Of a stretch of 64,000 bases of DNA, positions 211 through 63,633 are shown piece after piece. Numbering within the stretch: position 1 is the stretch's first letter; every line of letters starts with the position of its first letter. The stretch comes from Eledone cirrhosa (taxonomy: Eukaryota): contig OZ024751.1 in the NCBI GenBank assembly GCA_964016885.1, positions 17,670,001 to 17,734,000 of the forward strand, written 5' to 3'. Position numbers and translations under genes: made by a program. The notes beneath the pieces were generated by a model, which saw only the letters and a program-made list of their open reading frames with translations, was not told the DNA's origin and did no database searches.

Positions 211-825
211 GTTATAATAAATGTTCGTTATAATAAATGTTCGGGGAATCCATACGTACATATATATATGTGTGCATGTATGTATATATATATACATACT
301 ACTGTATGTATGTATACATATATGTATGTACGTTTACATACTTATATTTAAGTAACAGCCGTACTAAGAGTGGGAAATGAAATTTCGTTTCATTTTTTCC
401 GTTTATCGTTTTCGGTGCACCCGGTCGATTAACCAACTGGATATGCAAATTGGGCAACTCAGCCGTTAATATGCATAAGGTAAGTATATACGTTTAACAA
501 TCTGGCAGGAAGGTATACGTTGCTGACGATAGCTAATGAACTTGAAACTAGTACAGCGTTCCTCTGTCAGTGTTGAACAAACGAGCAACGATGGTTGCTA
601 GACACTACGGCTTAATACGGGATGTTTGTTTACAAACACACCGAGCGTTATAATAAATGTTCGGTGAATCCATACGTACATATATATATGTGTGCATGTA
701 TGTATATATATATACATACTACTGTATGTCTGTATACATATATGTATGTACGTGTACATACTTATATTTAAGAAACAGCCGTACTAAGAGTGGGAAATGA
801 AATTCGTTTCATTTTTTCCGTTTAT
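211..825 (+). mobile_element. Non-coding hammerhead-bearing element, partial tandem (about 1.4 units, 420-bp period), in (TA)n
   Basis: 226-405 is repeated at 646-824; one hammerhead at 517-559; related in reverse orientation to 40460-41502. Confidence 0.7.
517..559 (+). ncRNA. Minimal type-I hammerhead ribozyme (weak stem II)
   Basis: ACGTTG-CTGACGA-tagctaatgaactt-GAAA-CTAGTA|CAGCGT; stem I ACGUUG/CAGCGU; palindromic ACTAGT stem III. Confidence 0.65.
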
Positions 826-2933
826 ATATCTCTCTCTCTCTCTCTATATATATATATATATATATATATATATATATATATATATATAAAATTAAAATAA
901 GTTGTGAATATAAAATACATACATAATATACTCACACACACACGTATATATATATATATATATATATATATGTATGTGTGTGTGTGTATCATCAGATTTG
1001 AACTCGAGATACTTATGCTTATAGTCCAATACGTAATCACGTTGGCCATCTGGCAACTGGCAATGTGACGTAATTAGACTCTAATAGTTCTTATGAACAT
1101 AATCAGCTTTTAGTATTGTTCAGATGTTCAGGGGCTTCTCTCGTTTTTTATGTTGTTATGGAAGATCTATGATACCTCAAGTTAGCTAGAGCATATTGAA
1201 ATATATACAGATATTCATAGATAATTTACACAGACGCTAATATACATACATACACACATACACACACAAATAGATACACACACACACACATATATATATA
1301 TATATATATATATATATATATATATTTATATTTATATACGTATATGCCTATGTTCATATAAAATATATACATTTGGATGTATATATATATATATATATAT
1401 ATATATATTTATATATAGCTATATGTAAATAATATAAATGTATATACATACATATATATACATATATATATATATATATATATATATATATATATATATA
1501 TATATATATATATATATATATATATATACATACATATATATATATATATATATATATATATACATATATATATATATATATATATATATATATATACATA
1601 TATATATATACACATATATATATATACATACATATATATATATATACATATATATATATATACATACATATATATATACATATATATATACATATGTATA
1701 TATACATATATATATATATATATACATATATATATATATATATATATATATATACATATATATATATATATATATATATATATATATATATATATATATA
1801 TATATATATATATATATATACATATCCATACATACATATACATTTCATATACACATGTGTACATCCTTTGTATTTACACTTAGTCGTCTCTTTATCTTAA
1901 GTAGTATATGTTGTTGATATTTATACAACACTACTCCAACTAGTTTTCTGAACGATTAGCTTTGATCTCGTGAATCTCATATCTACAACTTGTAAGTCTT
2001 TCGGCTGCAGGTCAACTGAACAGAGCATCGACCAGCGTCTTCAATGGGATTATAATGAGTACATACACACAAACACATACACACACACAAACACATACAC
2101 ATACACATGCAGACACATACACACAAACACATACACATACACACACATACACATACACATGCAGACACATACACACAAACATACACACGTGCGCACGCAC
2201 ACACACACATATATATACACCAACACATGCACTTATGTATGTATGTATATATATAAATATATCTATATGATATAATTATATGTGTATATATATATATACA
2301 TATTGTATATATAATATATATATACATATTATATATACTTATATATATATATATATATAAGTATATATATATATATATATATATATATATATATATATGT
2401 TTGTGTGTGTGTGTGTGAGTGTGTATTAATATATATATATATATATATATATATATATATATATGCATACATACATATATTCGTTTGAAGTGTATATTAT
2501 ATGAATAAATGCATGTTTTATATTATACAGTTTTGTTCTATGTATATATATGTATGTATTTATATATATATATATATGTATGTATGTATATATATATATG
2601 TGTGTGTATATATATGTGTGTGTGTGTATGTGTGTGTGTATACACCTGGATAATCAGATTAAGACGTTAATGAATGCATATATACGCCAATACATAATAT
2701 ATAATCTATAATGAATAATAAACCAAATTGTACGAGGGTAACGTTATTTGGGTCGCTGTTAAAGACGTTACCTTCGCAACCAAGTGAGTCACGTTTCCGA
2801 ACCAGCGCACATCACCTTTTTATATCACTTGTAATTCATTTGTTTATGTAGGACAGAGGTTCTCAATGTGGGCGCTACCGCCCCTCAGGGTGCGTAAAAA
2901 AGGTCCAGGAGGTGCTGGTACTTAAGGGGTTGG

Positions 2934-3207
2934 TCTAAAGTCTAAAGTCTAAAGTCTATCTTAAGCCAGATGGCTCATTTGGCCGGTGCATATCCCGGTT
3001 TCCTGGCGTGAAACGACTGAGAATACACGCCAGTCCATCGGAGGGTTAAACCCCCAGCTCTTGCTGGTACTCATTTTCAGCTGAGTATACTGGAGCAACG
3101 TGAAATGAGGTGTTTTTCTCAAGAACACAACACGCATCCCAGGAATCGAACCCACGACATTATGATCGTAAGTCCAACACCCTTAACACTAGGTCATGTG
3201 CTTCCAC
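2934..3207 (-). mobile_element. tRNA-derived SINE with (TTTAGAC)n tail, nested in the hAT MITE
   Basis: Minus strand has a tRNA-like head (GGGTTCGATTCC B-box), a central aaaatgagtaccagc domain and a 7-bp repeat tail at 2934-2958. Confidence 0.75.
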
Positions 3208-3299
3208 TAGAGATGATATAATAGTATATTAAATATCAAATGATACATACATATAAATATAGTAAAATAAAAAATATATAATATTTATTTATACATTTA

Positions 3300-3642
3300 G
3301 GGCAGTGAAATGGCAGTATCGGTCGACGCTTGGACGCCATGCCTTCTAGCATAGTTACGTCCCTTTACTGTCTGAGTACAAATCCCGTCGGGGTTAACTT
3401 TGCCTTTCATCCTCACGGGGTCGATAAAATAAAGTACCAGTAATATACTGGGTAATTGCTGGCCTTGTGCCAAAAGTAGAAGCAATTATATTTATTTATA
3501 CATCGTATATATTATATTATTTATATCTGAGTACAAATCCCGTCGAGGTTAACTTTGCCTTTCATCCTTACGCGGTCAATAAAATAAAGTACCAGAAACA
3601 CACTGGGTAATTGCTGGCCTTGTGCCAAAAGTAGAAACAATT
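3300..3642 (+). mobile_element. SINE family A: full copy (3300-3488) plus partial copy (3526-3642)
   Basis: A-box-like TGGCAGTATCGG, B-box-like GAGTACAAATCCC, core gttaactttgcctttcatcct..gtcgataaaataaagtaccag (resembles the MetaSINE domain, from memory). Confidence 0.85.
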
Positions 3643-4118
3643 ATTTATTATATATAAATTAACGATTTTATTTATAATATATAATTTACAATTCGCATGT
3701 AGGTAGTTCTCTCTGGAAATAGGGTTTTGGGCGGTGAGGGTTTTACGTGGCCGTTAGAGGGGTGCGGCCCAAAAGATTTGAGACCCTCTGATGTAGGAAG
3801 TCGTCTAATTTGAGGGACATTTGGCGGATACGTTTAGCAGATTGTGCACCTATTTCAAGTAATGTGTTACTACACTCTCTGTTTTATTCTATTCACATAT
3901 GAGTCTTTGTAAAGGGATATTAAATAATCCAAGTAGTTGATCGATATTTTATTTTTATCGATCGTGATAAGATGAATTGCAACTACAACGATTGAAATCA
4001 ATAAACATCATATTTAATAAACCTCACGGATTAATAGCTCTTTAATGACCAAAGGACAGGTCTTGATTGTTTCAGTCTGAAACTATACCTATCCAGGCAG
4101 CAATATTTCTAGTAGGTC

Positions 4119-62100: not shown

Positions 62101-62700
62101 ATATATATATATATATATGTATGATCTTCATTCTTTAACTATTATATATATATACATATATATATATATATATATATATATATATACATATATATATATA
62201 TATATATATATACATATATATATATATAACGAAGGTGTTGTGGTAAGGAACCAGATGGACCATAACGCACCAGAGTACTCAATACTTAGGGTAGTAGAGT
62301 GGGTAATAGGAAAATGTATGTTTCGATGGCTTGAGCTCTGCCGTCGGGGTCCTACATTTTCCTATATATATATATATACACACATACACACACACACACA
62401 CACACACACACACACACAGACACACACACACACACACATATATATATATATATATATATATATATATATATATATATATATATATATATATATATATATT
62501 AAAGAATTAAACAAGATTCAATGAGCATATCAAAGTATGAATTTTACAGTAGATTGGAAGCACTCTACGAGAAATAATTTTCCAGACTTATTAATATTAA
62601 AATACAAATATTAATAAAATAGATGTTCTTTTGATCAATTACATTTTATTATACATATTTCGGAGGTACATCAGTACGTCCCCATCAGACAAAATATAAT

Positions 62701-62804
62701 TGTTTCTACTTTAGGCACAAGGCCAGCAAATACCGAGTGCATTACTGGTACTTTATTTTATCGACTCCGTAAGGATGAAAGGCAAAGTCAACCTCGGCGG
62801 GATT
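62701..62804 (-). mobile_element. 5'-truncated SINE family A with 14-bp TSD
   Basis: AGACAAAATATAAT (62687-62700) / AGACAAACTATAAT (62805-62818). Confidence 0.85.
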
Positions 62805-62872
62805 AGACAAACTATAATGATACATGACATACCCTGAGATTTAACATCTCAGGCTATGTCATGTATCATTAT

Positions 62873-62925
62873 ATTTTGTCTGATGAGGACGTACTGTTGT
62901 ACCTCCGAAATATGTATAATAAAAT
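62873..62925 (+). ncRNA. Minimal type-I hammerhead ribozyme
   Basis: ATTTTGT-CTGATGA-GGACGTAC-tgtt-GTACCTCC-GAAA-TATGTATA|ATAAAAT. Confidence 0.85.
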
Positions 62926-63633
62926 GTAATTGATCAAAAGAACATATATTTTATTAATATTTGTATTTTAATATATATATATATATATAAACATAGATAT
63001 ATATATGGCCCAAAAACCATTGAATTGTATATCAACAAAATAAGTACCAGACGTAAAGCAATCTACAATTCACTACGGTCGACTAATCATTCCTAAATGC
63101 CATGCACCAGCATGGCCCCAGTCTTGAGACAATATCAGAAAATAACCTATAAATACGTGTCTACACTTATACATGAAGTATATATATATAGGCATGCCAG
63201 AAATTCATTTAAACAAACGCATCTACTTCGATAAATACAGCCGCAAACCTACACCCAATCTCACACAGTGTCACATATATGCACACATGCAATCAAATGC
63301 ACTCAGTCATCGCTGGGCGTCGTTAAATCGTGCGCATGCGTAGACATAGACATGCTGACACATGCACATCCACGCATGCGAACATCCATCCTTCCAACCA
63401 TACATACATATATATATATATACATACACACGTTCATTTACTCATGTACACAAGTATAAGCATGAACCCATGACAATATACACGTATATACACGTATATA
63501 CACGTATATACACGTAATATACACGTAATATACACGTATCTACACACACCACACCGCACACACACACACACACACACCACACACACATGCACACACAAAA
63601 ACACACACACACACATATATATATATATATATA

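Follow-up and report, generated by a model that had tools for sequence, protein, structure and literature searches.

A stretch of 64,000 nucleotides of Eledone cirrhosa DNA (contig OZ024751.1, positions 17,670,001 to 17,734,000; hereafter the window) is crowded with hammerhead ribozyme motifs, many of them next to (TA)n microsatellites, and raises the question of what these motifs belong to and how they came to be inserted. Their identity as the ends of Penelope-like element (PLE) families and of three non-coding retrozymes, likely put into (TA)n by PLE enzymes, is considered highly probable. The original prediction, as a whole, is partly confirmed.

Hammerhead motifs in the window and in the genome

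A strict type-I hammerhead descriptor, controlled with 100 local dinucleotide shuffles and with the reversed window, gave 8 matches in the window against a shuffle mean of 0.06 (max 2) and 0 in the reversed window, while a scored descriptor (score of at least 11) gave 13 against a mean of 0.07 (max 1) in 60 shuffles. The shuffle controls rule out a chance origin, and the comparison with dinucleotide-shuffled sequence on which the original prediction was staked thus comes out in its favour. Of the 20 sites that it named, 12 fit the descriptor, with cores at 5459, 17103, 24963, 40792, 52885, 53104 and 54004 on the minus strand and at 25105, 40196, 41242, 54186 and 62880 on the plus strand; the remaining 8 belong to real families as damaged or variant copies. 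Specifically, stem II is altered at 523, the stems are defective at 22548 and 22593, an inversion interrupts stem I at 39742, GAAA is altered in each of the copies at 53331 and 58028, core A9 is altered at 62693, and the 59146 core is a U4C variant, present in 6/6 copies from 4 loci in a search by stem II anchor. The 13th scored match, at 35941 on the plus strand, is absent from the named sites. These sites sort, by our count, into 12 families, in agreement with the "at least 8" first claimed. No hammerhead in an order other than dimer-type I was found in the window (stems I and II of at least 4, stem III of at least 3); in particular, the type-SGC (non-circularly permuted) hammerhead, sought as the S-G-C block order with three stems, gave 0 window matches. 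In an Rfam scan of the window the hammerhead family was absent among the 150 matches listed of 622, in which miRNA models matched to microsatellites predominated, each below the gathering threshold.

Genome-wide figures derive from a blind 740-kb sample (74 loci of 10 kb), which contains 81 hammerhead matches against 0.2 expected. Intact motifs occur once per 4.9 kb in the window and, at about half that density, once per 8-9 kb in the blind 740 kb, more thinly than the one per 3-4 kb first proposed. Extrapolation gives ~325,000-365,000 intact motifs in the genome and, at 300,000 or more, bears out the expectation of a very large genomic ribozyme population. The anticipated genome-wide (TA)n bias is likewise present on the 3' side, where a tract lies within 250 nt in 69 of the 81 matches, versus a mean of 26.9 (max 38) for matched random positions; the 3'-side controls gave 78/384 for non-hammerhead CUGANGA and 7/64 for a SINE motif. 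Such a tract is present on the 5' side of only 32/81 matches. The claim that every island sits inside (TA)n went too far, since 5459 adjoins a trinucleotide tail on its 5' side and the 420-bp family, which has a TA tract inside its unit, has some copies in non-TA DNA. AATAAA, said to be the usual follower, occurs in only 18/81 matches genome-wide when the count begins at the first base past the cut.

As expected, stem III is palindromic, perfectly so in 34/44 blind matches and within one mismatch in 44/44, the search having used no palindrome filter; by distinct sequences, the palindrome is found in 10/17 versus 2.3 expected. In 16 homologous Hydra-type hammerheads, rows chosen by descriptor and two of them misregistered, pairing reaches 95.3% versus 89.5, and two-sided cells number 27 versus 10.6. 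The two-sided cells were matched in 0/500 shuffles, pairs with two-sided change in 26/500 and further pair types in 497/500. Many families share a C.C mismatch at position 4 of stem II.

The monomer probability of stem III is at most 0.05 in 13/13 window matches, and that of stem I at most 0.07 in 13/13 with 450 nt of upstream context. The ribozymes are predicted to cut mostly as dimers, and most genomic copies are likely silent. The 39742 family has intact copies with a 4-bp stem III, a relative whose MFE structure is the three-helix fold, and a stem I that covaries between subfamilies; as it is predicted to fold as a monomer, a "dimer only" rule would not be general. Efficient cleavage as dimers was an overstatement, for the published activity is low even in that form (PMC4209133, PMC6765202). 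Cleavage has also been described as protein-assisted, and as dispensable for insertion in vitro (PMC11167929).

Elements that carry the motifs

The features recognised in the window are the following, with cores given with their strand.

211..824, plus strand: ~420-bp non-coding retrozyme, present as a partial tandem of period 420; hammerhead 517-559 with stem II altered
5155..5665, minus strand: non-coding retrozyme with a ~995-bp tandem unit, here truncated at the 5' end; long loop 2 in its hammerhead (5464-5340)
15517..15615, minus strand: hammerhead of another family, damaged here (core 15603-) but intact in a relative from the blind sample; not originally listed
15989..16185, unstranded: degenerate Hydra-like fold-back (core 16080-); not originally listed
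16985..20412, minus strand: 5'-truncated, frameshifted PLE of putative Neptune/Nematis type in (TA)n; DKG, CX4CxxC linker, CCHH-type GIY-YIG
22461..22792, unstranded: fold-back with two damaged cores (22548-, 22593+), from an untraced hammerhead family; its right arm has a 112-nt tail
24868..25299, unstranded: fold-back (cores 24963-, 25105+) from a family that is sister to the Hydra-B pseudo-LTR; 99-nt tail
35936..35979, plus strand: hammerhead of a further family, with 26 related matches in fetched loci; not originally listed
39615..39812, unstranded: fold-back (core 39742-) belonging to a very common family and broken in this copy; 26 anchored copies in 740 kb
39999..40293, unstranded: Hydra-B pseudo-LTR piece; inverted tail and sense arm, hammerhead 40196+
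40460..41505, unstranded: 466-bp retrozyme, partial tandem and inverted arm (cores 40792-, 41242+); 70-nt tail
52790..53404, minus strand: three 169-bp 3' ends of Hydra-C with (TA)n between (cores 52885, 53104 and 53331, the last damaged)
53817..54283, unstranded: Hydra-B pseudo-LTR as a fold-back (cores 54004-, 54186+); 90-nt tail
57940..58170, plus strand: 3' end of an untraced family, whose minimal hammerhead (core 58028) is damaged at GAAA here but intact in relatives from the blind sample
59110..59332, minus strand: untraced family with the U4C core variant (6/6 copies, 4 loci)
62500..62970, unstranded: Hydra-D fold-back (cores 62693-, damaged, and 62880+); SINE piece between the arms; 98-nt tail

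By motifs and structure, three of the hammerhead families are assigned as pseudo-LTRs (pLTRs) of Hydra-clade PLEs, that is, Hydra-B, Hydra-C and Hydra-D. Hydra-B has open frames of 745-747 aa in 6/6 fetched loci, with DKT, CxCX5C, CxxC and CxH motifs, no CCHH, and RWR at the position of the RWK motif. Direct hammerhead pLTRs flank both sides in 4/6 of these loci with a period of 3741-3825 nt, a length above the <3 kb norm of the clade, which is a descriptive and not a diagnostic trait. In the pLTR-ORF-pLTR elements the hammerhead lies ~190 nt upstream of the start codon, and Hydra-B insertions end 48 or 138 nt past the predicted cut. The window fold-back at 53817..54283 has an end identical to that flanking intact Hydra-B frames, and the sister family at 24868..25299 shares 77-89% identity with Hydra-B pLTR ends, to which it is linked by similarity alone. 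For Hydra-C, at least 11 of 20 loci have upstream sequence that enters a Hydra-type endonuclease, and the linker and C-terminal motifs read as in the Hydra clade; for Hydra-D, the tail leads into the start of a Hydra ORF in 3/30 loci. In both, the ORF is partial and was located by tblastn. Pieces of Hydra-type ORFs also occur in 13 of the 74 blind loci, and a Pfam search with the Hydra ORF gave zero domain matches. The features of the clade found here comprise the hammerhead in the pLTR, the tandem and inverted structure, the tail and the (TA)n target. Extension of the hammerhead families into PLE ORFs, one of the proposed checks, thus holds for the three Hydra families; five other named families (22548, 24963, 39742, 58028 and 59146) were traced to neither an ORF nor a tandem unit, the fetched flanks of 22548, 39742, 58028 and 59146 containing no ORF.

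Three more families consist of tandem non-coding units, each with a type-I hammerhead and without a PLE ORF. The 420-bp family has relatives in tandem. The ~995-bp unit forms direct tandems of 995-1001 bp in 4/25 loci and has a fixed end ~190 nt past the cut. Arrays of the 466-bp retrozyme reach 13 direct units, some with inverted arms, and its insertions end ~230 or 302 nt past the predicted cut. Direct repeats of 11-13 nt, terminal overlap included, occur at 3 non-TA retrozyme insertions. Substitutions between 466-bp units (n=45) amount to 1.77 in the same arm, 1.69 between opposite arms and 3.67 between different arrays, values confounded by higher-order duplications. In particular, variants recur in the arrays with period 4 and period 5, pointing to duplication after insertion, and array homogeneity is therefore no proof of a circular template. 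Comparison of retrozyme ends with PLE ends found zero matches; the retrozymes would use PLE enzymes in trans.

Paired ends and the route of insertion

At most of the paired sites, inverted arms form a fold-back in which one arm has an extra tail, an arrangement overlooked in the original prediction. One short and one tailed end are combined in 6/6 named fold-backs of the window. Among Hydra-B inverted pairs, one long and one short end occur together in 15 of the 18 classifiable cases (p=0.004 against 0.5); the exceptions are 2 short-short pairs, in multi-copy loci, and 1 long-long pair, and 3 of all 21 pairs are unclassifiable. The same combination is found in 10/10 pairs of Hydra-D, where one long arm is forced by the query, and in 6/7 inverted pairs of the 466-bp retrozyme. 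The top-40 genome matches are skewed toward young copies. The scissile bond is spanned by every insertion.

Inverted pLTRs with an optional tail are a published PLE structure (PMC3846280, PMC8557442), and in vitro both strands of an AT-rich target are cut and extended, with two internal starts, used on unprocessed RNA, that define the tail (PMC11167929). In the proposed mechanism, PLE enzymes would begin copying at two fixed internal starts, on RNA that is either uncleaved or circular. The PLE protein would nick both strands of the AT-rich target, and each nicked 3' end would prime reverse transcription, one per start; both cDNAs would usually stop early and then be joined head to head, giving rise to fold-backs with two hammerheads. 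With the hammerhead lying within 50-300 nt of the starts, no insertion would be too short to carry it, which would account for the high density. Selection on the fold would act on the source elements and not on individual copies. For the full claim, a coupled two-primer PLE reaction with each strand tied to one RT start, together with the largest hammerhead population among those found reported, the chances are judged to be about even. If true, the genome would hold ~300,000-400,000 intact motifs in dozens of families and be seeded with very many long RNA hairpins, and the one-short-one-long pairs shared by PLE ends and retrozymes would be direct genomic evidence that PLEs move retrozymes.

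The inverted pairs might otherwise stem from self-priming on an antisense transcript, or from repair after a single priming event. Either process alone predicts no pairing of long with short ends, and the extension of both strands by PLE protein in vitro (PMC11167929) also argues against this origin, which we regard as unlikely even if junction palindromes in rotifer PLEs have led to such an origin being proposed (PMC3846280) and, in the 39742 family, breakpoints cluster at the ribozyme and some junctions are recurrent.

A different possibility is that the islands form a single system, made up of short ribozyme elements that are non-autonomous and are mobilised by the PLE at 16985-20412 or by its family, close to the original view that a PLE enzyme such as this one mobilises them. 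The element is of putative Neptune/Nematis type as judged by motifs: its translations show DKG, a CX2-5CxxC-type linker and CCHH in the GIY-YIG domain, with RVT_1 and GIY-YIG Pfam matches below cut-off. Its coding region is scattered over several frames, its 5' end is missing, and a minimal hammerhead with a 2-bp stem I (17105-17074) lies 90 nt from its 3' end. The 40 best of 1184 candidates share 98-100% identity, which marks the family as young, and it ends in TA repeats, 12/12 fetched copies stopping at one base before TA-repeat DNA, and the retrozymes do need a helper. However, those 12 copies use a single end, the copy in the window carries frameshifts, a blastn comparison of its 3' 416 nt with 7 other family ends found no match, and three families run into Hydra ORFs of their own. 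A single system of this kind is very unlikely, and most of the islands that could be traced belong, as 5'-truncated ends, to Hydra-clade PLE families of their own.

Retention of the dispersed copies as host regulatory ribozymes, suggested by their sheer number and by the predicted monomer fold of the 39742 family, is no less improbable, as 8/20 named copies are damaged or variant, motif counts follow TA-tract counts per locus (Spearman 0.58) and the fold-back context is predicted to bury the hammerhead fold. MITE-like DNA transposons, with inverted repeats at their ends and a TA duplication at the target, would fit the TA flanking the inverted arms and a 193-bp hairpin family without intact core, of fixed length in 20/20 loci, but are exceedingly improbable given that the arms are 3' ends of RT-encoding elements, and for the traced families are largely refuted by arms made asymmetric by a fixed tail (6/6 named window fold-backs) and by Hydra-B inversion points that vary (194-728 nt between cores in short pairs, kilobases elsewhere).

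Relation to known systems

Insertion by PLE enzymes, as preferred here, bears on the open questions of how inverted tailed PLE insertions originate, what the hammerhead does and what mobilises animal retrozymes. The genome offers young Hydra elements with intact frames and defined ends (+48/+138), retrozymes that share this footprint and, as natural variants useful for tests, a monomer-type family, a U4C family and the recurrent C.C mismatch. For annotation, the fold-backs run the risk of being mistaken for MITEs or miRNA hairpins. In the literature covered, that is, outside subscription papers and bioRxiv supplements, neither a genome-wide cephalopod hammerhead count nor a paired-end rule for PLEs was found, and the word "ribozyme" occurs 0 times in the Octopus vulgaris repeat paper (PMC13282606).

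The system is largely known and stands out mainly for its scale. Hydra PLEs with hammerheads in (TA)n have already been described in octopus (PMC8557442). The elements found here resemble that clade, including Hydra-1_Obim of Octopus bimaculoides, in a single RT-GIY-YIG ORF with DKT, CxCX5C and no CCHH, in the hammerhead in the pLTR, the (TA)n target, the inverted 5'-truncated copies and the tail at one end; the hammerhead of Hydra-1_Obim is annotated already, and the likeness of Hydra-B to it was judged by eye. They differ in units of 3.7-3.8 kb versus generally <3 kb, in tails of 90-100 nt versus 30-40, and in at least three diverged families with very many truncated ends where that report describes few families. 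The element at 16985-20412 shares DKG, CX2-5CxxC, the CCHH endonuclease and a minimal hammerhead near the 3' end with Neptune/Nematis PLEs (PMC8557442), unlike which its stem I has just 2 bp.

The minimal hammerheads of metazoan PLEs (PMC4209133) are likewise dispersed by the thousands, mostly in truncated PLEs, with a palindromic stem III and pairs on opposite strands 100-700 bp apart. They number ~2,000-9,000 per genome, as against ~325,000-365,000 here, although the descriptors differ, and the motifs described here depart from them in a stem III of 6-8 nt, long loops 2 and the recurrent C.C mismatch. Metazoan non-LTR retrozymes (PMC7229834; Li et al. 2026, 10.64898/2026.07.22.740005), for which PLEs have been proposed as the mobilising partner, are also non-coding tandem units with a type-I hammerhead each, of 170-400 nt or 51-972 bp in these two sources versus 420, 466 and ~995 bp here. 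The present retrozymes, known from DNA alone, form inverted two-armed arrays with two fixed ends; in PMC7229834 the words "inverted" and "target site" occur 0 times. Finally, the proposed reaction parallels that of the PAc Poseidon element in vitro (PMC11167929) in the cutting and extension of both strands, the two internal RT starts, the uncleaved RNA and the AT-rich target. One-long-one-short pairing is not among the Poseidon results consulted in that report, and Poseidon, which belongs to a different clade, has its starts in the ORF, whereas here they lie in the 5' UTR.

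Hammerhead motifs and their predicted folds

The hammerhead motifs originally reported from the sequence are real, as judged by shuffling: a scored type-I descriptor gives 13 matches in the window against 0.07 in 60 shuffles, and a strict one 8 against 0.06 in 100 local dinucleotide shuffles. Of the 20 named sites, 12 fit the descriptor; the remaining eight are damaged or variant copies, with recognisable relatives of their families. By our own count the named sites comprise 12 families, where at least eight had been proposed, and the window holds three unlisted sites (15603, 16080 and 35941). 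Of 622 Rfam matches for the window, the 150 listed include no hammerhead. When permuted block orders were looked for in the window (stems I>=4, II>=4, III>=3), the dimer-type I order alone gave matches.

The mostly palindromic stem III of the original prediction is borne out in a blind sample of the 3.0 Gb genome (74 ten-kb stretches at round coordinates, picked unseen). In particular, with no palindrome filter applied, this stem is perfectly self-complementary in 34 of 44 matches and carries at most one mismatch in all 44; of 17 distinct stem III sequences, 10 are palindromic against 2.3 expected. Among 16 homologous Hydra-type hammerheads, 27 two-sided changes were counted against 10.6 in shuffled data (0 of 500 shuffles), although counting pairs gives a weaker signal (26 of 500 shuffles) and the alignment rows were picked by the descriptor. 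In many families, the fourth pair of stem II is a C.C mismatch.

Predicted stem III probability in the monomer is at most 0.05, and that of stem I at most 0.07 when upstream context is included, in 13/13 window matches; therefore, most copies are predicted to be silent. For 12 of these matches, dimer helices have predicted energies between -1.7 and -6.4 kcal/mol. Efficient cleavage as dimers, assumed at the outset, disagrees with publications reporting low activity even for dimers (PMC4209133, PMC6765202).

Three further window features were noted: 54395-54460 (-), with a core at 54443 plus stem II and lacking stem I; 33381 (+), a core plus hairpin lacking GAAA; and 49484-49740, a 126-bp tandem carrying CUGACGA.

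Elements carrying the motifs

Most motifs can be assigned to known kinds of element: additional Hydra-clade Penelope-like elements (PLEs), Neptune/Nematis-type PLEs and retrozymes, that is, non-coding tandem repeats with a hammerhead in each unit. Three Hydra-clade families extend into PLE ORFs, as the original prediction had proposed to check. The Hydra-B end (40196, 54004, 54186) borders intact frames of 745-747 aa in 6/6 fetched loci, with a pLTR-ORF-pLTR arrangement (pLTR, pseudo-LTR) in four of them and a period of 3741-3825 nt; its protein has DKT, CxCX5C, CxxC and CxH and lacks CCHH, which corresponds to the definition of the Hydra clade (PMC8557442). For Hydra-C (52885, 53104, 53331), at least 11 loci out of 20 have upstream DNA that leads to a Hydra-type endonuclease, 31-43% identical to that of Hydra-B; for Hydra-D (62693, 62880), three loci out of 30 have a tail that continues into the start of a Hydra ORF. 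The pair 24963/25105 is assigned, by similarity only, to a sister Hydra end. An Rfam match to MIR5565 at 54040-54148 (74.7 bits, gathering threshold 80) was rejected as a miRNA, being the centre of a Hydra-B fold-back.

Other hammerhead elements of the window
16985-20412: Neptune/Nematis-type PLE, 5'-truncated, coding region split among several frames
40792/41242: 466-bp retrozyme, arrays up to 13 units, inverted arms in some
523: ~420-bp retrozyme, internal TA tract, insertions in non-TA DNA too
5459: ~995-bp retrozyme, tandem in 4/25 loci

The hammerhead at 17103 belongs to the 3' end of this Neptune/Nematis-type PLE; all 12 fetched copies of the element terminate at one identical base, followed by TA-repeat DNA. 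In one locus (L193) the 420-bp retrozyme sits at a Hydra element's ORF end, with an 11-nt direct repeat. Variants in the 466-bp arrays of loci L087 and L283 recur at period 4 (and 5), which suggests higher-order duplication after insertion.

No parent element was traced for the families of 22548, 39742, 58028 and 59146. That of 39742 is very abundant, with 26 anchored copies in 740 kb; its stem I covaries between subfamilies, and one relative is predicted to fold as a three-helix monomer. Breakpoints on its 5' side and inversion junctions are concentrated at the 5' strand of ribozyme stem I (loci L113, L138, L145, L150, L357-L381); only about 5 of 26 blind-sample copies reach upstream, and certain junctions recur. 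The 59146 family has U4C, a known weak natural variant (PMC3088659), in 6/6 copies at four loci. In the blind sample too (L088-L161), U4C outnumbers every other single core change in folds that are good apart from it (7 matches, the next 3); its frequency there is possibly mutational.

Among other window elements, a SINE-like family has many copies, partly tandem or inverted and without TA bias (for example 3255-3659, 12262-12713, 38807-39550, 45538-45924). Two LINE-type RT fragments, 5717-6727 (-), ending in a trinucleotide tail, and 36288-36857 (-), both with RVT_1 below cut-off, are presumably RTE-like.

Paired ends and a possible mechanism

All six named paired sites are fold-backs, head-to-head inverted pairs of element ends in which one arm is longer by a tail of ~60-112 nt. 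In Hydra-B, the element ends 48 or 138 nt past the predicted cut, and 15 of 18 classifiable inverted pairs (21 found) combine one long and one short end (p=0.004). The same holds for 10/10 Hydra-D pairs, for which the query forces one long arm, and for 6 of 7 two-armed loci of the 466-bp retrozyme, with ends ~230 or 302 nt past the cut. Three non-TA retrozyme insertions show direct repeats of 11-13 nt, terminal overlap counted. PLEs have been described with inverted pLTRs, duplications of 8-10 bp and, optionally, a tail (PMC3846280, PMC8557442), and dispersed minimal hammerheads that represent truncated PLEs, with pairs on opposite strands, have been known since 2014 (PMC4209133); literature searches found no paired-end rule.

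In purified form, a PLE protein cleaves AT-rich DNA on both strands and extends each of them; it works on unprocessed RNA, with two internal starts that define the tail, and the hammerhead of that PLE requires the protein (PMC11167929). Here, two primers, one per target strand and start, might be extended into cDNAs that stop early and then join head-to-head, and retrozymes would borrow the PLE enzyme. As insertions span the scissile bond, the template was uncleaved or re-ligated; hammerheads may be over-represented because they lie close to the starts. Fold-back transcripts are, from fold predictions, expected to form long hairpins. Antisense self-priming exists as an alternative model (PMC3846280). 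A PLE origin of retrozymes has been argued in a 2026 preprint (10.64898/2026.07.22.740005).

A 193-bp hairpin (36260-36451, 41560-41750; relatives at 6671-6796, 50344-50481, 62229-62360) has no intact hammerhead core and consists of a short arm plus an 80-nt tail. With fixed length, 99-100% identity and TA repeats at both flanks in 20/20 fetched loci, it has the appearance of a PLE-type fold-back that was multiplied as one unit. Further fold-backs lie at 16490-16600, 57029-57069 and 58213-58358, relatives of the last adjoining hammerheads of a different family.

Genomic abundance, target and known systems

The blind sample contains 81 matches at score >=11, in 36 sequence clusters, against 0.2 in six shuffles. 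Weighted by chromosome class and omitting two loci adjoining the window, this gives ~325,000 intact motifs (95% bootstrap 225,000-440,000), one per 9.2 kb, or ~364,000 (260,000-482,000), one per 8.2 kb, with 11 long-stem-III matches added. The very large population anticipated originally is thus supported, while the proposed spacing of 3-4 kb is too dense, also for intact motifs in the window (one per 4.9 kb, about twice the genome estimate). The window has 209 (TA)n tracts, 9% of its length. Genome-wide, the predicted (TA)n bias holds downstream, within 250 nt of 69/81 matches against 26.9 at matched random positions (controls: 78/384 non-hammerhead cores, 7/64 SINE motifs); upstream it concerns only 32/81. 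AATAAA, said usually to follow, does so in 18/81.

Literature searches found no genome-wide cephalopod hammerhead count. The publications cited here give about 2,000-9,000 (PMC4209133), counts of >6000 and of ~5000 with a maximum of 120,000 (PMC7229834) and, for active retrozymes, as many as 14,255 (Li 2026 preprint, 10.64898/2026.07.22.740005); as descriptors differ, the comparison with our count is indicative. The main value of these findings lies in this scale and in a testable two-end footprint. Compared by eye, the elements found here resemble Hydra-1_Obim of Octopus bimaculoides; this likeness and a SINE motif point tentatively to an octopod cephalopod as host. Hydra PLEs that carry hammerheads and favour (TA)n were known before, that octopus element with its annotated hammerhead among them (PMC8557442).
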